This document shows, piece after piece, positions 27,227-36,444 of a DNA stretch of 64,000 nucleotides (positions are counted from its first letter, which is position 1; every line of letters starts with the position of its first letter). The DNA lies in assembly GCA_009392915.1 (NCBI GenBank), contig CP045477.1, positions 544,001 through 608,000 of the forward strand. The letters are read 5' to 3'. The position numbers and the translations under genes were made by a program. The notes beneath the pieces were generated by a model, which saw nothing but the letters and a program-made list of their open reading frames with translations, searched no databases and had not been told where the DNA came from. The DNA is from Candidatus Forterrea multitransposorum CG_2015-17_Forterrea_25_41 (lineage in GTDB: Archaea; Iainarchaeota; Iainarchaeia; Iainarchaeales; CSSED10-239).

Positions 27227-27916
27227 TTAACCTCTAGGGCCTCTTCTAATAATTTTTTTCTTTTTTAAATTAGATTCTAACTTGCTTTGAAAATTTTTAA
27301 CTCTATTTTTATAATCAAAATTTTGAGTTGAAATATTTCTTTCAAGTTTTGGTTTTCTTTTAAAAATAAAACCTTTATCTATTAAATAAATAGGGTTTTT
27401 CTTTAATTGAGCCTGAAGCAATTCAACATTAAATTTATTTTTAAAAAGTGGATTTGTTGAAAAAAGAGTAAATAAACTATCTAAATTTTTTTTAACATCT
27501 TTATTTTTATATAACTCTTTAACTAAAGATTTAAATTGTTTATTTTTAGATTCTAAAATCTTAAGACTAGCTTCTGTATTAAGAGAAGAATTATTTAAGA
27601 CTTTTAATAATTTTTCATTAGCTTCAACATTATATTTATAAAAATCATACATTTTATTAAAAACAGCAGTATCTGTATATAATCTATCTACAATTCTTTG
27701 TGCATTTTTCTGATTTGAATCAGATAATTTATAAGGATAACTTTTAAAAAATTGTTCTACAGCAACTTTTTGTTTTAAATTTTTTTTAATATTAGCATCA
27801 ATAATTTTCTTTGCAGAAAATACAGATAAAAGTAAACTTAAAGAAATTGCACCCGAAATTATAGTTGATTTATTCATATAAATATCTATAACAGAATAAA
27901 ATATAAATATATGCAT
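27227..27916 (-). CDS. Signal-peptide/anchored basic protein (hypothetical)
   Basis: N-terminal hydrophobic segment, then a K-rich helical domain. Confidence 0.3.
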   Translation of the reverse strand: MHIFIFYSVIDIYMNKSTIISGAISLSLLLSVFSAKKIIDANIKKNLKQKVAVEQFFKSYPYKLSDSNQKNAQRIVDRLYTDTAVFNKMYDFYKYNVEANEKLLKVLNNSSLNTEASLKILESKNKQFKSLVKELYKNKDVKKNLDSLFTLFSTNPLFKNKFNVELLQAQLKKNPIYLIDKGFIFKRKPKLERNISTQNFDYKNRVKNFQSKLESNLKKKKIIRRGPRG

Positions 27917-28297
27917 CTAAATTTATTTATGAAACTTAAAATAACAGGATTTTCAAAATTTGAAATAACTGAAAAAGAATATAACAAATTCTTAAAAAAA
28001 AGTAAAGAAGAAATTTATATTTGCCTTAAAAAAACAAAAGATGAAGAAATTTATCTTGAAATTGTTGGAGATGATTTTGAGAAAATTAAAGAAACAGTAG
28101 TATATATTTTCTTTAAAATTAAAAAAATTAAGTTTTTTAAAACAACTATCCTAACATTTAGTAAAAAAATAAGCAAAAAAGAAATAAAGAACATAAAAAA
28201 TGAAATTATAACAGAAATTGAAACAAAAATGGATAATATAAATTATAGTTATGCTCCAGAAGATTTACTTGAGATAACAAAAGCTAAATACCTTTAA
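27911..28297 (+). CDS. Hypothetical protein
   Basis: 128 aa, charged. No motif recognised. Confidence 0.3.
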   Translation: MHLNLFMKLKITGFSKFEITEKEYNKFLKKSKEEIYICLKKTKDEEIYLEIVGDDFEKIKETVVYIFFKIKKIKFFKTTILTFSKKISKKEIKNIKNEIITEIETKMDNINYSYAPEDLLEITKAKYL

Positions 28298-28310: not shown

Positions 28311-29363
28311 ATGGACAAAATAATTGGAATTAAAGTAAATAAAGATAAAGCACAAGAAACAATTTCTAAAATAAAAGAAGAAAATAACTTTAATTCAAGA
28401 TATAAGATAATTAGAGAAAAAGAAAACATAATCATACCTATTAAAAAAATAACTTCAGACTTAAATAAAAATAACATAGTAGAAATTAATAATCCAGAAA
28501 AACAAAAAGAAATTGGACTTACATACAAAGAAATACTTAAAAAAGAAATAAATTCTAAATATATAGATAATCTCCCTTCTTCTTATGATATTGTAGGAGA
28601 CATTATAATAATTAACATAGAAGATAAAGAATTTCTTAAAGAATATAGTTCAAATCTAACTAATTCTCTTAAAAAAATACATCCCCACATAAAAGTAGTC
28701 TTAAACAAATCAAAAGAACATCATGGAACCTTTAGAACACAAGATTTAGAATGGATAGGTGGCGAAAATAGAAAAGAAACAATTATCCAAGAAAACGGAT
28801 GTTATTTAAAAACAGATGTTGAGAAAGTATTTTATTCAACAAGACTTGCAACAGAAAGAAAAAGAATAGCCTCTTTAGTCTTAGAAAATGAAACAATAGG
28901 AGTTTTCTTTGCAGGAGTAGGTCCTTTTTCAATAGCCATTGCAAAACTTGCAAAACCAAAAGAAATTATTTCCATTGAACTTAACCCTATTGGTGTTAAA
29001 TATATGGAAGAAAATATTTTAAAAAATCAAATGGAAAAAATAATAACACCAATAGAAGGTGATGTTAAAGAAATATCTAAAAGATATCCAAACTACTTTG
29101 ATAGAATACCAATGCCACTTCCAAAATCTGCAGAAAATTTTTTAGATGATGCAATTTTTTCAATAAAAGATAAAGGAATAATACACATTTATAATTTTGT
29201 ATCTAAAAATGAACCATTTAAAGAAATTGAAAAAATAATAAAAGAAAAAGAAAAAAAGAATAATTGCAAGATAGAAATAATATTTAAGAAAGTTATTAGA
29301 AGTTTTTCTCAAACCACTGTACAGATTGTAATGGATTTAAAAATATCTAAAGATCTTTCTTAA
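28311..29363 (+). CDS. Trm5/Tyw2-family tRNA methyltransferase (Met-10+ like, m1G37 type)
   Basis: Class I MTase core VGVFFAGVGPFSIAIAK (GxGxF). The acidic/NPPY-like motif is ISIELNP. The N-terminal D1-like region is typical of archaeal Trm5. Confidence 0.7.
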   Translation: MDKIIGIKVNKDKAQETISKIKEENNFNSRYKIIREKENIIIPIKKITSDLNKNNIVEINNPEKQKEIGLTYKEILKKEINSKYIDNLPSSYDIVGDIIIINIEDKEFLKEYSSNLTNSLKKIHPHIKVVLNKSKEHHGTFRTQDLEWIGGENRKETIIQENGCYLKTDVEKVFYSTRLATERKRIASLVLENETIGVFFAGVGPFSIAIAKLAKPKEIISIELNPIGVKYMEENILKNQMEKIITPIEGDVKEISKRYPNYFDRIPMPLPKSAENFLDDAIFSIKDKGIIHIYNFVSKNEPFKEIEKIIKEKEKKNNCKIEIIFKKVIRSFSQTTVQIVMDLKISKDLS

Positions 29364-31716
29364 GTTTAGGTTTCTTTTTAGAAGTTTTAGATTTAGAAAC
29401 TTCTTTTGGTTTTACTTCTTCTTTTTTCTTTGAAGGTTTAATTTTTGAAACTATTTTTTTAACACTTTTAATAGAATCACTTTTTTCATTTTCTAAAAGA
29501 AGTTTCTTTCTTTTCTCAAGTTCAAATATTTGTTTATCAATAATTTTCTTTTCAAAATCAACTGAAGCACTATCATAAATAGTTTTAGATTTAGAATCCT
29601 TTAAAACATCTTTATTTTTTATTCTTTCAAGCTCTAAAAGATATTTATCTCTCATTTCTTTATAAGTGAAAGGACTTATTTTTCCTTCAATTAATTTTTC
29701 ATCTAAATAACCTATTTGTTTAATTATTCCTTCCTTTGAATGATGTTTTTTAAATCTTTCAACTTCAAAGACAATTGTTAAAACCATTAAAAACAAAGCT
29801 GCAACAAATAAATAAAGATAAACATCTTTCTTCTCTTTTGAATAAATATAGATGTTTTGAGAAGAAGTTTCTTTTTCTTTACTTACATTTTCATCTTCAT
29901 CAGAAACAATAATTACAGAGCCTTGATTTGAAGAACTAATATCAATAACTAATGTTTCAAGATCTGTATTTAAATAATAATCAAGAACTATTTTTTCTGT
30001 TTCATAAAGATAATGTGCAAAATTAAGTATAGAGTTTGCAACATTTAATTGAGATTTTGCTTTTTCTTCATCTTTATTTTTATAGAAATCATGAGCATTT
30101 TTATAATAAATACCATGATCTAAGAAAGTTTTAGACCAAACATAATTTTCATTATTCATTGCACTTTGATTTCTTAAATCTTTAGTTAATTGATCATATT
30201 TAATATTAAAATCATTTAATGTAAAATTATTTTTACTGTCTTCTTGTGTTTTTATAACAGCTAAAGCAGTTGCTGAATCATAAAGTGAAGTTACATACCA
30301 TCCTCTTTGGTAATTAATCTTTGCAGCATTAAGTCTTCTTTTTAAATCTTCAGTATCTGCTATGTTTGGAGCAACTAAAATTAATTGATTTTCAACAGAT
30401 ATAATGCTTTCTTGTGCTTTTTCTTTAAAAAAGTTAGATTCTACAAACTTTAAATCATTATTTGTTGTAATTGATGCATCTAAAAAATCATTTGCAATTT
30501 CTGTCCATGCTAAAGCATAAGCATATTCTTGTATTTTTGAAAAATTATTTATAGTTTGCTTTTCTTTTAAAGATTCAACTTTATCTCTTGCCCAAGTAAT
30601 TCTTTGTCTTCCACCAACACACCATTCTAAATATTCAATTGAACAGTTGTTAGATCTGTTTTCTGTTAAAGTTATTTTTTCATCAAGTTCAGAAACTCTA
30701 AGATCAAAAATAATTGAAGAATCTGCTAAAATTGATGGATTTGTAATAATTTCTTCAACAGAGATTATATTAATATAAGCTAAAAAAGAATTATTTGCTG
30801 CTGAATAAAAATAATTATTTTCATAAAACTTTTTTGAATTTTCAACAAGTTCTTCAGAATAAGTAACTGTTGATAAAAGTGTATCTAGAACATCTAAATC
30901 TTTTATGTTAGAGGAAGATATTTTAGAATTAATTGAAGATAATTTTTCTTCAGTATTAAGAATATATTCTTCAGTTATTTTTTTTAAAGGTTCAACAGCT
31001 TTAGAATATTCAATTTTATTATAAACAAAATCATCTACTTTTTCTTCTTGAATAGAATTTACATCAATTGAAGAAACATCTTTAAAAGCATAATCTAGAA
31101 CATCATCAATAGTTGATACTTCAATAATCTTTAAACCCCATTCATTATAAGCATGCTCAATTAAATCAACTTGTTTAATTTCATCATCTTCATTAATCAC
31201 TTGAGATCTATTTCCTTGAGGTATGAAAAATAAATCAACACCTATTTCAGAAGCTTTTTTTGCTTTATAATAAATTCCACCAACATCTCCAATATATCCA
31301 TCAATTGAAATTGAACCAGTCATACTTACATTTTCAGGAACTGGAGAATCTTTAAACATTGAAATTATTAAGAGAGCCATTGCACCACCTGCAGATGGAC
31401 CATCTATAGTGTGTGCATTTGAAGTAATATCAACTGTAAAATCATACTCTTGCTTAATATCTTCTTTTATAACTGAATCTGCAACTGCAATTGCATTTTT
31501 AAAAGATTCTTGTGTTGAAGAACCTACTATTGATTCATCTATTGAAGAATATATTTTTCCAGTACCAGGTATAATTTTTACATTTAATTGTGCATCTTTT
31601 GCACTTGTTTCACCAGATACTGCGAAAATCTTCATATTAGCATCAGAAACTAATGCAAAAAGATTAGGCATTAAAAGTATTAAAAATAATAATATTGCAA
31701 TTGATTTAATTTTCAT
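29347..31716 (-). CDS. Secreted/membrane-anchored protein with a Lon-like S16 peptidase domain
   Basis: N-terminal signal peptide (MKIKSIAILLFLILLMPNLFAL). The Lon proteolytic domain IDGPSAGGAMALLIISMF...VSMTGSISIDGYIGDVGGIYYKAKKASEIGVDLFFIPQGN carries the catalytic Ser in DGPSAG and a downstream Lys. A large middle domain is followed by a C-terminal TM helix and a Lys-rich tail. 789 aa. Confidence 0.65.
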   Translation of the reverse strand: MKIKSIAILLFLILLMPNLFALVSDANMKIFAVSGETSAKDAQLNVKIIPGTGKIYSSIDESIVGSSTQESFKNAIAVADSVIKEDIKQEYDFTVDITSNAHTIDGPSAGGAMALLIISMFKDSPVPENVSMTGSISIDGYIGDVGGIYYKAKKASEIGVDLFFIPQGNRSQVINEDDEIKQVDLIEHAYNEWGLKIIEVSTIDDVLDYAFKDVSSIDVNSIQEEKVDDFVYNKIEYSKAVEPLKKITEEYILNTEEKLSSINSKISSSNIKDLDVLDTLLSTVTYSEELVENSKKFYENNYFYSAANNSFLAYINIISVEEIITNPSILADSSIIFDLRVSELDEKITLTENRSNNCSIEYLEWCVGGRQRITWARDKVESLKEKQTINNFSKIQEYAYALAWTEIANDFLDASITTNNDLKFVESNFFKEKAQESIISVENQLILVAPNIADTEDLKRRLNAAKINYQRGWYVTSLYDSATALAVIKTQEDSKNNFTLNDFNIKYDQLTKDLRNQSAMNNENYVWSKTFLDHGIYYKNAHDFYKNKDEEKAKSQLNVANSILNFAHYLYETEKIVLDYYLNTDLETLVIDISSSNQGSVIIVSDEDENVSKEKETSSQNIYIYSKEKKDVYLYLFVAALFLMVLTIVFEVERFKKHHSKEGIIKQIGYLDEKLIEGKISPFTYKEMRDKYLLELERIKNKDVLKDSKSKTIYDSASVDFEKKIIDKQIFELEKRKKLLLENEKSDSIKSVKKIVSKIKPSKKKEEVKPKEVSKSKTSKKKPKLKKDL

Positions 31717-31780: not shown

Positions 31781-32245
31781 TTACTTTTTCTTGTTTTTGA
31801 AAAGAAGATTAAATTTTTTAGTTGTAGAAAGAATATTTTTCCTTCCTTTTTTTTCAATTGAAATTAAATCTAGTTCTTTAAGTATTTTTAAGTCTTCAAA
31901 AGGTCTTTTCTTACTTATTTTTGATTGTTCAACAGGAGCATTTAAAGAAATAAAAGCTAAAGTTTTAAGTTCAGATTTTGAAAGAGTTGTTCCTGTTGCA
32001 AAAATATTAAAAGAATGGAATTCTGGTTTTACAACAATTTCTAATTTTTTATTATCTTTAACAATAGAAAGAGAAGTTTTTCTTTTATTATAATCATTGA
32101 TTAAATCATCTATCTGAATATCAATTATTTTTTTATCAATATTTGGAAATGAAGAATAAATTTTTGAAATTAAAGTTGATTTTGGAGATAGAAACAAAAT
32201 AGCTTCAATTGCTTGTTTTAAATAATCACTACTTGTTTGGTCCAT
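31781..32245 (-). CDS. scpB: ScpB-like segregation/condensation protein (winged helix)
   Basis: The N-terminus LKQAIEAILFLSPKSTLISKI resembles the ScpB EALLF motif. The size (154 aa) is compatible with archaeal ScpB. Confidence 0.4.
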   Translation of the reverse strand: MDQTSSDYLKQAIEAILFLSPKSTLISKIYSSFPNIDKKIIDIQIDDLINDYNKRKTSLSIVKDNKKLEIVVKPEFHSFNIFATGTTLSKSELKTLAFISLNAPVEQSKISKKRPFEDLKILKELDLISIEKKGRKNILSTTKKFNLLFKNKKK

Positions 32246-32266: not shown

Positions 32267-33043
32267 TTATTCTCTTTTTGCAGTTAATGTTTCATTACGT
32301 GCAGGCATTATGTAAACAAAATAATCTCCCTCTGAAACTTTATCTCCAGTAGATTTTTCAATCCAATAAACAGTAGAGTCATCTTCTGATTGACTTAAAA
32401 AACTTATAGATCCGTGAACCACATCACCTGTTTGATATTCTCCAGCTCCATTAAGAATAGGTTGAGAGATTCCAGTATCATTTTCTAAAGTTAAAGTATA
32501 AGTTTCTGGCTCAGAAGATTCTGCTTGAAAAATTGCAGTAACTGATTTATTTTGAGTCATTGTAACGTCACAATTTATAGCAGCAGTATCACAATTTCCA
32601 GTCCATCCTTGAAAAGTATTTCCTTCAGATGCATTTGCATTTAAAGTAACTGAAGTTCCTGAAGAATAATTTTGAGAACAATCAGTTCCACAATTAATAC
32701 CTACTGGATTTGAAGTTACAGTTCCATTTCCAGAAACATTAACAGTTAATGTATAATTTTCAGGATCTGGTTCATCTGGTTCATCTGGTTCATCTGGTTC
32801 AGGATCTTCTCCTCCAGGATTAGGATTAACATTATCTATTTCTTCAACTTGAGAAGAATCATTTAAATCTTCAATAAACCCATCAACTGTTGAATCTATT
32901 CCTTCATTAATTTTGTCAGATTGACTTACTTTCTCATTTGAAAAATTAATAAAGGTTGTTGCAAGAACAATTGTACCTAAGACTAAAACACCAACTATAA
33001 TTACCATTTCTAAAGAAACTTGAGCTTTTTTATTTTGAATCAT
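32267..33043 (-). CDS. DUF361-type archaeal type IV pilin-like protein with Flg_new-like repeats
   Basis: Class III signal peptide MIQNKKA|QVSLEMVIIVGVLVLGTIVLATTF (Q at +1, E at +5). A (PDE)n linker. Repeats with GINCGT(D/N)CS...GTSVTL...G(N/H)xFxGW, as in Listeria-Bacteroides (Flg_new) repeats. Confidence 0.7.
   Translation of the reverse strand: MIQNKKAQVSLEMVIIVGVLVLGTIVLATTFINFSNEKVSQSDKINEGIDSTVDGFIEDLNDSSQVEEIDNVNPNPGGEDPEPDEPDEPDEPDPENYTLTVNVSGNGTVTSNPVGINCGTDCSQNYSSGTSVTLNANASEGNTFQGWTGNCDTAAINCDVTMTQNKSVTAIFQAESSEPETYTLTLENDTGISQPILNGAGEYQTGDVVHGSISFLSQSEDDSTVYWIEKSTGDKVSEGDYFVYIMPARNETLTAKRE
32764..32800. repeat. 9-bp tandem repeat (about 4 units, TCTGGTTCA) encoding a (PDE)n linker in the pilin-like gene
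   Basis: ggatctggttcatctggttcatctggttcatctggttcagg is seen directly. It encodes EPDEPDEPDEPDP on the minus strand. Confidence 0.8.
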
Positions 33044-33072
33044 ATTTATTCTTATTTTATATTTTTATAATA

Positions 33073-35190
33073 TTATTCTAAGCCACCATCAGTAATAGTC
33101 CAATTATAATTATTAATTAATATATTTTTTGCATCAACTGCAGAACTATCATAATTAACTGCTGTTGCACCTAATGTAACATTACTTTTTAAATTAGTTA
33201 AATTTGACCATCTAATTAAAATATTAGAATAATTTACAGTAGATAATGCATAATCAAACATATGAGCCATATCAGTTACATTTGAAACATCCCATGCACT
33301 AATATCTTGATCAAAACAAATATCAGAAATACTAAAGAAACATTGAAACATTCTGTTCATATTTGTAACATTTGAAACATCCCACATACTTATATTTTGA
33401 TTAAATGAATAATTATTATAAAACATAGAAGACATATCAGTTACATTTGAAACATCCCAATTATTCAATGGTTGATTAAATCTAGTACATCTAAACATTG
33501 CAGCCATATTAGTTACATTTGAAACATCCCAATTATTTATAGAAGTATTAGTCCATGAAAATACACCATTATTTGGAGGACTACTTACACTACAATTTTG
33601 ATAACCACTAAAAGTTCCTGCTAAATTTGTAATTCCGTTTAAATCAGGAACATCAGTTGCAGTTACAACTAAATTTGTAGCTCCAGAGAAATAATATCCA
33701 CTATTTCCAAATTTTAAATTACCCCATTGACTAATTTCAGTTAATTTTAATTTATCTCCAGAATTATTAAACCTAAAACCTTCAATAAAACCTGTTATGA
33801 TTACATCATATATCCCAGAACTTGAATATGTGTGAGTTTTATCAGGATCACTATAACTTGTAACCTCTGATGTAGTTCCATCTCCCCAATAAACTTTAAA
33901 ATTATAATTATTACTATAAAGAGAAGCAGAATCTAAAGGTAATGTAATTTGATTTGCATTTGAAGAACCAGTACTAATTTTTGTAGTATCCCATTTAGAT
34001 ATAAATGCATCTGAAGTAGGTATAAAATTTGCAGTTAAATTCACATTACTTGAAGGCATTGTATAACTAAATGAAGGATCTGTACTTACTACAGTACCAT
34101 TTTGATCAATCCAATTTACATAAGAAAATTCAGCAATAGAAGAGACAGATATATTTGCAACATCTCCAGGATTATAATTTCCTGCACCATTTAAACTAAT
34201 ATTTACTGAATCTGGATTTTCAATTAAATTTAAATTATAAGCAACAGGCAAACTAAAAGTTGCAGTTACATTTTTAACTTCAGTCATAGAAACAGAACAA
34301 CTAATTTGAGGTCCAGAACAATCCCCAGACCATCCTTCAAAAACATATCCTGAAACTGGAGTTGCATTTAATTGAACAGATTGTTGATCAGGAAAAGTTG
34401 CAGAACAGTTTGTTTGAGATTCTAAACAATTAATTCCAGAAGGATAAGTTTCAACAGTTCCTCCAATTGTTTTAGTTAAATTTAAAGTATAACTGTTTGG
34501 AAGATTAAAAGTTGCAGTTACATTTCTTGCTTGAGTCATGGAAACTGTACAAGTAAGATTAGTTCCTGAACAAGCACCTGACCATCCACCAAAACTATGA
34601 CCAGTAACAGGATTTGCAGTTAAAGTAACTGAAGTGCCTGAAGAATAATTTTCAGAACAATTAGTTCCACAATTAATACCAGAAGGATTTGAAGTCACAG
34701 TTCCATTTCCCGCACCACTTAAAGATACATTTAAAGTATAAGTTGATGGAGCAGTTGATGAAAAATTTGCAGTTAAAGAAGTATTTGAATTTAAATTAAA
34801 AGTATATGGATTTGTGGAAAGTGAACCTGTTGGAGTTGTCCAATTATTAAAAGTATAACCTGAAAGAGCAGTTGCAGTTGCAGTAACTGAAGTTCCACAA
34901 CTAAAAGTTCCAGCTCCTGAAACAGTACCACCTGCTGGAGGGTTTGAAGATAAAGTTAAAACACAATTACTACCAACACCTGAAATTGGTTCATAATCTT
35001 CAGGATTTGTTAAATCTTTAATAAAACCATCAATTGTTGAATTTGTAGCAGCATCAATTTCTCCTGCTTGATCTACTTTTTCATTTGTAAATCCAATTAA
35101 AATAGTTGCTAAAATAACAGCACCTAAAATCAAAACACCAATAATAATTATCATCTCTAAAGAGACTTGAGCTTTTTTACTTTTATTCAT
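33073..35190 (-). CDS. Large DUF361-type pilin-like adhesin with Flg_new-like repeats and BspA/DUF285-like C-terminal repeats
   Basis: The class III signal is MNKSKKA|QVSLEMIIIIGVL. The ORF-track start at 35265 adds a 25-aa Lys-rich extension that is probably untranslated. Four repeats have the form ...NPSGINCGTNCSENYSSGTSVTLTANPVTGHSFGGWSG... C-terminal 25-aa repeats are NWDVSNVT(N/D)M(A/S)xMF. Many NxT/S sequons. Confidence 0.7.
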   Translation of the reverse strand: MNKSKKAQVSLEMIIIIGVLILGAVILATILIGFTNEKVDQAGEIDAATNSTIDGFIKDLTNPEDYEPISGVGSNCVLTLSSNPPAGGTVSGAGTFSCGTSVTATATALSGYTFNNWTTPTGSLSTNPYTFNLNSNTSLTANFSSTAPSTYTLNVSLSGAGNGTVTSNPSGINCGTNCSENYSSGTSVTLTANPVTGHSFGGWSGACSGTNLTCTVSMTQARNVTATFNLPNSYTLNLTKTIGGTVETYPSGINCLESQTNCSATFPDQQSVQLNATPVSGYVFEGWSGDCSGPQISCSVSMTEVKNVTATFSLPVAYNLNLIENPDSVNISLNGAGNYNPGDVANISVSSIAEFSYVNWIDQNGTVVSTDPSFSYTMPSSNVNLTANFIPTSDAFISKWDTTKISTGSSNANQITLPLDSASLYSNNYNFKVYWGDGTTSEVTSYSDPDKTHTYSSSGIYDVIITGFIEGFRFNNSGDKLKLTEISQWGNLKFGNSGYYFSGATNLVVTATDVPDLNGITNLAGTFSGYQNCSVSSPPNNGVFSWTNTSINNWDVSNVTNMAAMFRCTRFNQPLNNWDVSNVTDMSSMFYNNYSFNQNISMWDVSNVTNMNRMFQCFFSISDICFDQDISAWDVSNVTDMAHMFDYALSTVNYSNILIRWSNLTNLKSNVTLGATAVNYDSSAVDAKNILINNYNWTITDGGLE
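33271..33540. repeat. Four copies of a roughly 75-bp periodic repeat (core agttacatttgaaacatccca) within the large adhesin gene
   Basis: Near-identical 25-30 nt cores at about 33271, 33364, 33436 and 33509. They encode the repeated NWDVSNVTxMxxMF units. Confidence 0.75.
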
Positions 35191-35279
35191 ATCTTTATCC
35201 ACTTTTTTTACTTTTTTAGATTTTATTATTTTTTTAGATTTAATTTTTTTAACTTCTTTTTTCATAAATATCTTTTCTC

Positions 35280-35663
35280 TTAATTAAAATTTGCTGTAAT
35301 ACCAGTATTAAAATTTAAATCAAAATAGAATATTTCAGTTTTGCTCATAATAGCTCCAGAAGAATCTTTCCAGTTTAAGAAACTATGACCTGTAGCAGGA
35401 ACAGCTTCTACTCTTACTTGAGTTCCACAAGCAAAACTACCATCTCCTTTAACAGTGCCAGCATCTTGAGGATTTACTGAAATTACTAGATTACAAATAA
35501 AGTTATCAACAATTTCATCTGTTTGTTTATTAATTGCATTAGATTGATCTGCTTTTGAAGAAGACATATTAATAACAATTGTTGCAAGAATAATTGTCCC
35601 TAAAACTAAAACACCAACGATAATCATCATTTCTAAAGAAACTTGAGCTTTTTTATTTATCAT
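35280..35663 (-). CDS. DUF361-type type IV pilin-like protein (short, with one Flg_new-like unit)
   Basis: MINKKA|QVSLEMMIIVGVLVLGTIILATIV, plus ...GTVKGDGSFACGTQVRVEAVPATGHSFLNWKD. Confidence 0.7.
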   Translation of the reverse strand: MINKKAQVSLEMMIIVGVLVLGTIILATIVINMSSSKADQSNAINKQTDEIVDNFICNLVISVNPQDAGTVKGDGSFACGTQVRVEAVPATGHSFLNWKDSSGAIMSKTEIFYFDLNFNTGITANFN

Positions 35664-35778: not shown

Positions 35779-36444
35779 TTAAATAACTTTTATAAAAATC
35801 TCAGAAAAGAAATCATCTTGCCAAACATTTATCTTCTGATCTTGATGAAGAAATAAAAGAGGAATAAATAAATTATTAACAATATCAAAATTATCAATAT
35901 TTTTTGAAAAAAGATTTTTAAAAGTTAAACAACCTTCCTTATCTGCTTCTTTTTTAATTGAAGAAAAAAGAGAATCAATTCTTAAGTTAATATCTTCAGT
36001 TGATTTTGGAACAAAAAATTCAACTTCTGCTTTTTCTTTAATCATTTTTTCAATGTTTTTTTTAGTTGGTTTATTCATTATAGTATCTATTGCTTCAATT
36101 AAATCATCTAAAGAAACTTGACTTTCTTTATTTCTAATTGGATTTTCTAAGTTTAAAGCATTAAGTAAAATATCATCTTCTTTAGGTATTATTAAATCAT
36201 CTTCAGGATCAATACTTGAAAGCTTTAAAGTATATGTTTTAATTTTAAGAAGAATACTTGCAGCTAGAAGTGCATTTGCAGGAATCATTAAATTTTCTTC
36301 TTTAAACTCTATTATTTTTTTTAAATAGAGATCTGTAAGAGAAATAATATCAATATTCCAAATATCAAAATCATTTGATTTTACAAGATCAAACAAAAGT
36401 AGTTTCCAGTTTGGTTGATCTATAATGTTTACTAATTCTTCCAT
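35779..36444 (-). CDS. scpA: ScpA-like kleisin (segregation and condensation protein A)
   Basis: The N-terminus WKLLLFDLVKSNDFDIWNIDIISLTDLYLKKIIEF...IPANALLAASILLKIKT matches the ScpA N-terminal pattern LDLLL.LI....DI.DI.I..IT.QYL.Y......L..A...LVMAA.L..IKS. Confidence 0.5.
   Translation of the reverse strand: MEELVNIIDQPNWKLLLFDLVKSNDFDIWNIDIISLTDLYLKKIIEFKEENLMIPANALLAASILLKIKTYTLKLSSIDPEDDLIIPKEDDILLNALNLENPIRNKESQVSLDDLIEAIDTIMNKPTKKNIEKMIKEKAEVEFFVPKSTEDINLRIDSLFSSIKKEADKEGCLTFKNLFSKNIDNFDIVNNLFIPLLFLHQDQKINVWQDDFFSEIFIKVI

Follow-up and report, generated by a model that had tools for sequence, protein, structure and literature searches.

Introduction

Lon-type (S16) proteases are classically ATP-dependent enzymes of the cytoplasm. 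Escherichia coli LonA forms a soluble hexamer in the cytoplasm and carries N-terminal and AAA+ domains on the same chain as its proteolytic (P-) domain. In archaeal LonB (Thermococcus onnurineus 3K1J and Archaeoglobus fulgidus 1Z0x are the structures compared here), the S16 domain belongs to a membrane-bound protein whose AAA+ module has inserted transmembrane (TM) helices, and the protease faces the cytoplasm (PMC4343526). YlbL, a Lon-type protease in the membrane of Bacillus subtilis, has no ATPase and is believed to work outside the cell (PMC6051672), and the NCBIfam family SepM (NF041438) comprises pheromone-processing S16 proteases. In archaea, few envelope proteases have been characterised, and the trimming and clearing of exported proteins outside the membrane is poorly understood (review, PMC4343526). 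Here we describe a gene in a 64,000-nucleotide stretch of Candidatus Forterrea multitransposorum (contig CP045477.1, positions 544,001 to 608,000; this whole stretch is called the window below) that encodes an S16 protease of a different build. The protein is probably a type-I membrane-anchored, extracytoplasmic, ATP-independent Ser-Lys endopeptidase on the Lon fold that would act on exported or membrane proteins or peptides.

Results

A complete gene for a predicted exported Lon-type protease

The gene lies on the minus strand of a strongly AT-rich window (18-29% GC). A preliminary description of this DNA had pointed to a 789-amino-acid open reading frame (ORF) with a set of Lon motifs, and both the ORF listing and the positions of the motifs agree with it. 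The predicted order of parts is signal peptide, Lon_C head, helical domain, stalk, C-terminal TM and Lys-rich tail. The features of the gene, in window coordinates, are as follows.

29347..31716, minus strand: complete ORF with ATG start (789 amino acids plus stop), predicted exported Lon-type (S16) serine protease
31654..31716, minus strand: Sec-type signal peptide predicted by sequence rules, residues 1-21, MKIKSIAILLFLILLMPNLFA, predicted cut after Ala21
31081..31647, minus strand: Lon proteolytic (S16) domain, residues 24-212 (Pfam, AlphaFold2, Foldseek)
31393..31395, minus strand: codon of the predicted catalytic Ser108 in DGPSAG, invariant in 77/77 sequences and aligned with the Lon active-site Ser
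31264..31266, minus strand: codon of the predicted catalytic Lys151 in GGIYYK, invariant in 77/77 sequences and aligned with the second Lys of LonA
29947..31002, minus strand: family-specific all-alpha ectodomain (AlphaFold2), residues 239-590, built of about 12 long helices and holding the invariant Arg372
29824..29946, minus strand: predicted disordered linker (stalk) ahead of the membrane, residues 591-631, predicted local distance difference test score (pLDDT) <50
29767..29823, minus strand: C-terminal TM anchor, residues 632-650 (AlphaFold2 helix to residue 658), Kyte-Doolittle peak 2.68
29350..29766, minus strand: predicted cytoplasmic tail, residues 651-789, with the helical-hairpin motif LDEKLIEGKISPFTYKEMRDKYLLELERIK, more helices and a disordered Lys-rich end

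The long-tailed architecture is common to about 95 full-length homologues and is far beyond chance for this reason. The AlphaFold2 model of the whole protein had a mean pLDDT of 85.6 and a predicted template modelling score (pTM) of 0.70. A protein with 98% identity is encoded on contig NPID01000305.1 (assembly GCA_015657875.1), where gene order is identical and TFIIB adjoins. The closest named relatives come from metagenome-assembled genomes called 'Candidatus ainarchaeum / Iainarchaeum' of the DPANN phylum Iainarchaeota (formerly Diapherotrites).

The head has a Lon fold with an invariant Ser-Lys pair

The Pfam scan of the 789-residue protein matched Lon_C (PF05362) to residues 64-211 with E 5.6e-17 and 62.4 bits (gathering score 21.1). 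The sole other match was to ChlI (PF13541) below threshold, and the scan returned no AAA+ or other ATPase family, as the preliminary description had stated. NCBIfam equivalogs of Lon matched via their C-terminal protease part alone, at 50-75 bits against cut-offs of 517-891; among these partial scores, Bacillus LonB and LonC came out slightly ahead of archaeal LonB. Judged by its domain content, the protein does not belong to the ATP-dependent LonA or LonB proteases.

HMMER matched PDB Lon chains to the head at E about 1e-11. The motifs DGPSAG, MTGSISIDG, GGIYYKAKKA and FIPQGN are at residues 105-110, 132-140, 146-155 and 164-169, and in the HMMER alignment Ser108 and Lys151 fall on the catalytic Ser and Lys columns of LonA, which we take to be Ser679 and Lys722 in E. 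coli Lon. Lys151 is aligned with the second Lys of the LonA motif GGLKEK. In a family alignment of 77 homologous sequences with 18-66% identity to the query, the residues G106-P-S108-A-G110, G134, G143, K151 and P166 are invariant, and Thr133 is kept in 98%. The AlphaFold2 model gives the Lon P-domain fold to residues 25-210, with pLDDT mostly >90 in residues 24-212. Foldseek searches of PDB returned the E. coli Lon P-domain (3wu6, 3wu4 and 1rr9) at E about 1e-10 with target template modelling scores of 0.80-0.83. Together, these data support the earlier proposal of a near-canonical S16 domain with a Ser-Lys dyad whose DGPSAG region aligns to the Lon profile, and the head is a genuine Lon P-domain that appears to be catalytically intact. 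An inactive scaffold, which is a variant of a topology weighed below, is disfavoured because the catalytic residues are invariant.

As a comparison, the best structural matches are to E. coli LonA (1RR9, 3WU3-6), over about 197 columns and with DGPSAG in both, but the N-terminal and AAA+ domains of LonA are absent from the window protein. Archaeal LonB is matched in both sequence and fold (E 6e-10 to 1e-9) and, unlike the window protein, has an ATPase. YlbL and SepM resemble the window protein in that they are membrane-anchored and lack an AAA+ module, their S16 head has a Ser-Lys dyad, and the active site is believed to lie outside the cytoplasm. They are, however, bacterial proteins of about 340 amino acids that are anchored by an N-terminal TM and contain a PDZ domain, whereas the window protein has a C-terminal anchor and an unrelated helical module. 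It scored 37.5 bits against the SepM model, which has a cut-off of 200, and is not a member of that family; no PDZ domain was matched in the Pfam and NCBIfam scans.

Predicted export and membrane topology

The protein has two hydrophobic segments, residues 5-23 and 632-650. The first has the features of a Sec signal peptide, that is, a basic n-region, a hydrophobic core of 10-20 residues and small residues at positions -3 and -1. In the query, an MKIK n-region leads into about 17 uncharged residues, with Pro at -6 and with L-F-A at -3 to -1. Across the 77 homologues, 96% have an n-region with a net charge of +1 or more; position -1, where the query has Ala21, is occupied by Ala in 68 and by Ser or Gly in six, and position -3 is V, A, S, I, T, C or L in 75. 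The first beta-strand of the Lon fold begins three residues past the predicted cut in the AlphaFold2 model. From these features we infer that the signal peptide is cleaved, in line with the earlier call of a cleavable-looking signal peptide, and the head and the helical domain would face outward whether or not the cut is made.

The second segment is followed by a strongly basic region. The 139-residue tail of the window protein contains 27% Lys and has 42 Lys and Arg residues versus 25 Asp and Glu residues, for a net charge of +17. Across the family, the 15-residue flanks of this TM have on average 4.2 Lys and Arg residues after it versus 1.8 before it. Short-tailed relatives stop 3-30 residues past the TM, and 40-78% of that short tail is Lys or Arg, which in terms of composition is a classic stop-transfer anchor. 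The positive-inside rule thus agrees with the C-terminal TM and cytoplasmic Lys-rich tail that had been predicted. Thermococcus homologues end in CGP-CTERM (TIGR04288; a CGP tripeptide, a TM and a short basic tail) at 24.1 and 28.8 bits, above the NCBIfam cut-off of 21, which is independent evidence for export; the NCBIfam scan of the window protein gave no match to this signal. To our knowledge, the CGP-CTERM sorting signal is carried exclusively by surface proteins.

Because signal-peptide features are kept family-wide and the basic side of the C-terminal TM is the cytoplasmic one, an extracytoplasmic position of the protease head is the best reading of the sequence, and export is well supported. 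The opposite arrangement, with an N-out anchor, an S16 head in the cytoplasm and the tail outside, could draw on the lysines that are also present just ahead of the second TM. It is contradicted by the positive n-region and the conserved small residues at -1 and -3, by the charge of the long tail and the basic composition of the short ones, and by CGP-CTERM on the Thermococcales homologues. We regard this topology and its inactive-scaffold variant as very improbable.

The preliminary description held a Lon head on the outside of the cell to be unusual. The external position stands as a prediction, but it is no oddity of the window since the family is archaea-wide and YlbL (PMC6051672) and SepM are bacterial precedents.

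A predicted helical ectodomain found in one architecture

Modelled separately with AlphaFold2, residues 239-590 gave a pLDDT of 94.5 and a pTM of 0.91 and folded into about 12 long helices. No structural relative of this region was found by Foldseek at E <= 0.001, and no sequence relative was found in Pfam or PDB searches, in agreement with the earlier view of a large middle domain of no known kind. A HMMER scan of 1.84 billion cluster representatives placed the domain in just 179 clusters, nearly always at about residues 225-600 of proteins of 550-870 amino acids and behind an N-terminal region of about 200 residues; the exceptions, which are short proteins, look like fragments. Because the scan shows it solely in this architecture and the Pfam, PDB and Foldseek searches gave no relative, the predicted domain is a family-specific accessory domain. 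Seven of its helices carry conserved polar residues (Glu364, the invariant Arg372, Glu442, Asp457, Arg461, Asp480 and His534). The stalk that follows has the lowest conservation in the family alignment, with 38% gaps.

The predicted cytoplasmic tail and its possible likeness to OST1

The long Lys-rich tail is confined to two Iainarchaeial clades (DPANN). The clade of the window comprises 11 loci at at least 42% identity, and the sister clade about 40 loci at 28-37% identity. The tail opens with the conserved sequence L-D-x-x-L-x-x-G-K-I-S-x-x-x-Y-x-E-M, a predicted helical hairpin. This first hairpin is common to the tails of both clades (hhalign probability 92%, 41 columns), and the sister-clade tails carry a second copy.

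Pfam matches among 22 tails were to GvpG (12), SHOCT (4), DUF1707 (4) and the CdvA coiled coil (3); the window's own tail had no match in the Pfam scan. A search of a set of 5.8 billion proteins with the tail profile returned two fragments and nothing else. Against PDB, the profile of the 22 tails had a sole match below 1e-3, to 8WHN at E 9e-7, spanning two helical-hairpin motifs. This entry is a four-helix bundle from the cytoplasmic C-terminus of Prometheoarchaeum (Asgard, MK-D1) OST1 (ribophorin I), and the domain pulls down ribosomes (PMC11417166). The fragment has no Pfam family, and therefore the link between the tails and OST1 cannot run through SHOCT or GvpG. As in the protease, the OST1 domain comes directly after a single TM and the bulk of the protein is outside the cell, but the extracellular parts of the two are unrelated.

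We compared the match to 8WHN with 2000 composition-preserving shuffles per profile. Results from this were:

All 22 tails: real score 41.3 bits; shuffle mean 8.3, maximum 27.9; 0/2000 shuffles reach the real score
Sister clade only: real score 32.6 bits; shuffle mean 6.3, maximum 27.3; 0/2000 shuffles reach the real score
Window's clade only: real score 15.6 bits; shuffle mean 9.3, maximum 21.9; 48/2000 shuffles reach the real score

Because no shuffle reaches the real score for the sister clade versus 48 for the clade of the window, we grade the likeness by clade. It would be a real resemblance for sister-clade tails, the only ones for which the match is robust, and is only suggestive for the window protein.

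One consequence could be that the protease is parked at the translocon, where the tail would dock the ribosome or translocon as OST1 does and the head would act on proteins emerging from SecYEG, clearing signal peptides or doing co-translocational quality control. Besides the 8WHN match and the ribosome pull-down, gene order in the sister clade fits this idea. The usual order there is L1-L10-L12-protease on one strand, then a convergent SMC-like gene and then a membrane protein gene, and one locus also has SecE, NusG/Spt5 and L11 upstream. However, the gaps between L12 and the protease are 115-680 bp or more and therefore do not indicate co-transcription. The 8WHN signal itself stems from the sister clade, the first hairpin alone is shared between clades, the tails are Lys- and Glu-rich helices for which the HMMER bias term is 13 bits, and short-tailed family members have no tail module. 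Docking at the translocon is thus unlikely.

Gene neighbourhood

The neighbours of the protease gene in the window are the following.

31781..32245, minus strand: scpB (SMC_ScpB, Pfam E 3.1e-18), directly upstream of the protease with a 64-bp gap
32267-35663, minus strand: three pilin-like genes with class III signal peptides, between scpB and scpA
35779..36444, minus strand: scpA (SMC_ScpA), split from scpB by the three pilin-like genes
28311-29363, plus strand: trm5/tyw2 methyltransferase gene, convergent with the protease

A DUF63 gene is also among the neighbours in the window. In the clade of the window the order is kept as scpA-(variable insert)-scpB-protease on one strand, after which come trm5, in convergent orientation, and DUF63. 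At their 3' ends the protease and trm5/tyw2 genes overlap by 17 bp (29347-29363), and this convergent pair is kept in related loci. Two ORFs with no Pfam match lie between DUF63 and trm5 (27227-27916, minus strand, 229 amino acids; 27911-28297, plus strand, 128 amino acids); they are present in the 98%-identical relative only and not in other clade members.

The pilin-like proteins have 258, 730 and 127 amino acids and carry Flg_new_2 / InlB B-repeats, and the 730-residue protein also has DUF285 repeats. A link of the protease to this pilin cluster, which had been raised in the preliminary description, is not conserved. Within the clade of the window, some loci but not all have pilin-like genes between scpA and scpB, and the other clades lack them. 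The scpA-scpB insert of relatives is absent or is one 899-amino-acid protein or an ABC transporter, or the pilin genes are upstream of scpA. It is scpB that is the conserved neighbour in the clade. Ten of the 11 loci have ScpB directly upstream; for the eleventh (L006), tblastn found an ScpB fragment at the contig edge. The gaps between scpB and the protease range from -8 to +96 bp, and start and stop codons overlap in three loci.

In about 30 sister-clade loci the protease gene abuts the SMC-like gene, mostly in convergent orientation and co-directionally in two. The product matches SMC_N (E 9e-41) and has a central CxxC hook. We also noted that this protein of about 990 amino acids (L047, 10470-13499, minus strand, and the about 30 sister-clade loci) has the SMC-type N-terminal motif QGDITKII..MSP.ERR and, at the expected hinge position, a central CPTC with a weak match to the Rad50 zinc hook (E 0.0019). 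Its gene is always preceded by that of a 256-amino-acid multi-pass membrane protein with a GPDPase_memb match.

These arrangements bear on whether the Iainarchaeial protease is tied to chromosome organisation by SMC-ScpAB, for instance through a tail that tethers DNA or condensin to the membrane. The single-strand order with scpB upstream and the codon overlaps fit such a tie, as do the SMC-like neighbour in the sister clade and the restriction of the long basic tail to these same two clades. However, these are at most two independent arrangements and possibly one ancestral arrangement, which inherited synteny can explain, and convergent genes are not co-transcribed. No scpA or scpB was found near the protease outside the clade of the window with hidden Markov models (HMMs) built from proteins of that clade. 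The 64-bp gap in the window holds a TATA-like TTTAAATA and a GAGG motif, which suggest that the protease gene may have its own promoter. Moreover, no DNA-binding domain was detected in the tails by Pfam scans, and the predicted catalytic part is outside the cell, out of reach of ScpA. The recurrent neighbours are condensin genes, yet via one or two ancestral arrangements only, and we consider a functional tie to SMC-ScpAB quite improbable. Separase-like cutting of the kleisin ScpA was also considered and is excluded by the predicted extracellular position of the catalytic head.

A scan for bacterial promoters and terminators, which is inapplicable to archaea, gave the shuffled background (28 found vs 28.5 expected).

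Outside Iainarchaeia, no common neighbour of the protease was found among the loci compared. In three Woesearchaeota-type loci of short-tailed relatives (L059, L070 and L072) the protease follows, on the same strand, a protein of about 700 amino acids that by eye is like type IA topoisomerase, and a common Cys-rich protein of 170-370 amino acids comes after the protease.

Distribution and names of the family

Among GTDB representative genomes, family members were found in Micrarchaeota, Aenigmatarchaeota, Woesearchaeota, Undinarchaeota, Hadarchaeota, Thermoplasmata, Desulfurococcales, Thermofilaceae and Thermococci. Members beyond Iainarchaeia are mostly 560-670 amino acids long with very short tails. 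All cultured Thermococcus and Pyrococcus species carry one.

Like the window protein, the Thermococcales proteins (for example T. gammatolerans ACS34613.1 / WP_015859716.1, and those of Pyrococcus abyssi and P. horikoshii) have a predicted signal peptide in front of a Lon_C head that contains GPSAG and the catalytic Lys, and they also have a helical ectodomain and end in a hydrophobic anchor. BLASTP against the T. gammatolerans protein gave E 7e-28 over query residues 7-323 at about 26% identity, including a conserved YYSA helix; the stretch aligned with Thermococcus homologues covers the signal peptide, the Lon domain and the start of the helical domain. They differ in that the Thermococcales proteins have about 640 amino acids, the CGP-CTERM end and almost no tail, whereas the window protein has a plain TM and the 139-residue Lys-rich tail.

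In databases the Thermococcales members go under the names 'S16 family serine protease', 'archaeal serine protease, Lon protease-like' and, for many of those from Thermococcus and Pyrococcus, 'ATP-dependent protease' or 'ATP-dependent proteinase La'. Precomputed Pfam entries of Thermococcus and Pyrococcus members hold Lon_C alone (a few also have ChlI or PF27854) and no ATPase domain, and because of this the 'ATP-dependent' names are mis-annotations carried over from Lon. Members of the cluster of the query have the JGI label 'predicted S18 family serine protease', a wording that presumably corresponds to COG1750. In the searchable literature we found no experimental study of the archaeal exported S16 family, and work by Makarova and Koonin on archaeal membrane and dark-matter proteins does not mention it. 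The gene is a real member of an archaea-wide family that is named in databases yet unstudied, and is not unique to the window.

The contigs that carry family members P0012/L006, L019 and L068 had been assigned to Patescibacteria, Falkowbacteria and Deltaproteobacteria in binning. The flanks of L006 (trm5 and scpB as in the window) and of L019 (L1-L10-L12 and the SMC-like gene, as in the sister clade) look archaeal, and the bacterial assignments of all three are probably binning errors.

A gene of T. gammatolerans annotated as 'putative extracellular archaeal serine protease' is listed among proteases for assimilating proteinaceous substrates (PMC2718504), and this gene is probably the homologue ACS34613.1. 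Such a listing, together with a head predicted to be external on a long stalk, would fit a nutritional or host-directed surface protease that digests external or host proteins for a DPANN cell of low biosynthetic capacity. The statement is, however, annotation and not experiment. Moreover, the family has been kept in widely differing archaeal lineages, the head stays attached to the cell that makes it, and the neighbouring genes are housekeeping genes rather than transporters or peptidases. Nothing among the present tests speaks for the host interaction that had earlier been suggested, and a nutritional or host-directed role is doubtful.

Discussion

The reading that we favour is that of an anchored protease working outside the membrane without ATP. 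The precursor would be exported via Sec and cut after Ala21, so that the mature protein begins with the protease head (residues 24-212). The head would be followed by the 350-residue helical domain (239-590), a flexible stalk of about 40 residues and a single C-terminal TM in the membrane, and in the Iainarchaeial lineage the 139-residue Lys-rich tail would stay in the cytoplasm. By analogy with YlbL and SepM, the substrates may be proteins or peptides that are exported or anchored in the membrane, and cutting them in the space below the surface layer may be a matter of processing or quality control. Substrates may be selected or gated by the helical domain, and the tail may serve oligomerisation or docking to a cytoplasmic partner.

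Some points weigh against this proposal. The gene neighbourhood gives no family-wide hint of a substrate, and the searchable literature holds no data on activity, localisation or substrate for any family member. In addition, purified YlbL without its TM was inactive in vitro (PMC6051672), and therefore activity may require oligomerisation or membrane context.

A further idea unites the tail with the external head in a two-sided device, in which the external protease would be positioned or regulated from inside by the tail, docking either on ribosomes at the translocon or on the nucleoid or SMC-ScpAB. We consider this somewhat speculative device unlikely. Even so, a possibly OST1-like tail on a protein encoded beside condensin genes offers a concrete yet speculative handle on outside-inside coupling across the membrane. 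If true, the translocon-docking version would give archaea a translocon-associated co-translocational protease.

The family spans Thermococcales to DPANN with an apparently intact Lon-type active site, no ATPase and a helical domain without a solved relative. In this family a protease fold that is classically ATP-dependent would be reused in an energy-free compartment. Since there are members in the genetically tractable Thermococcus and Pyrococcus, its role is directly testable.

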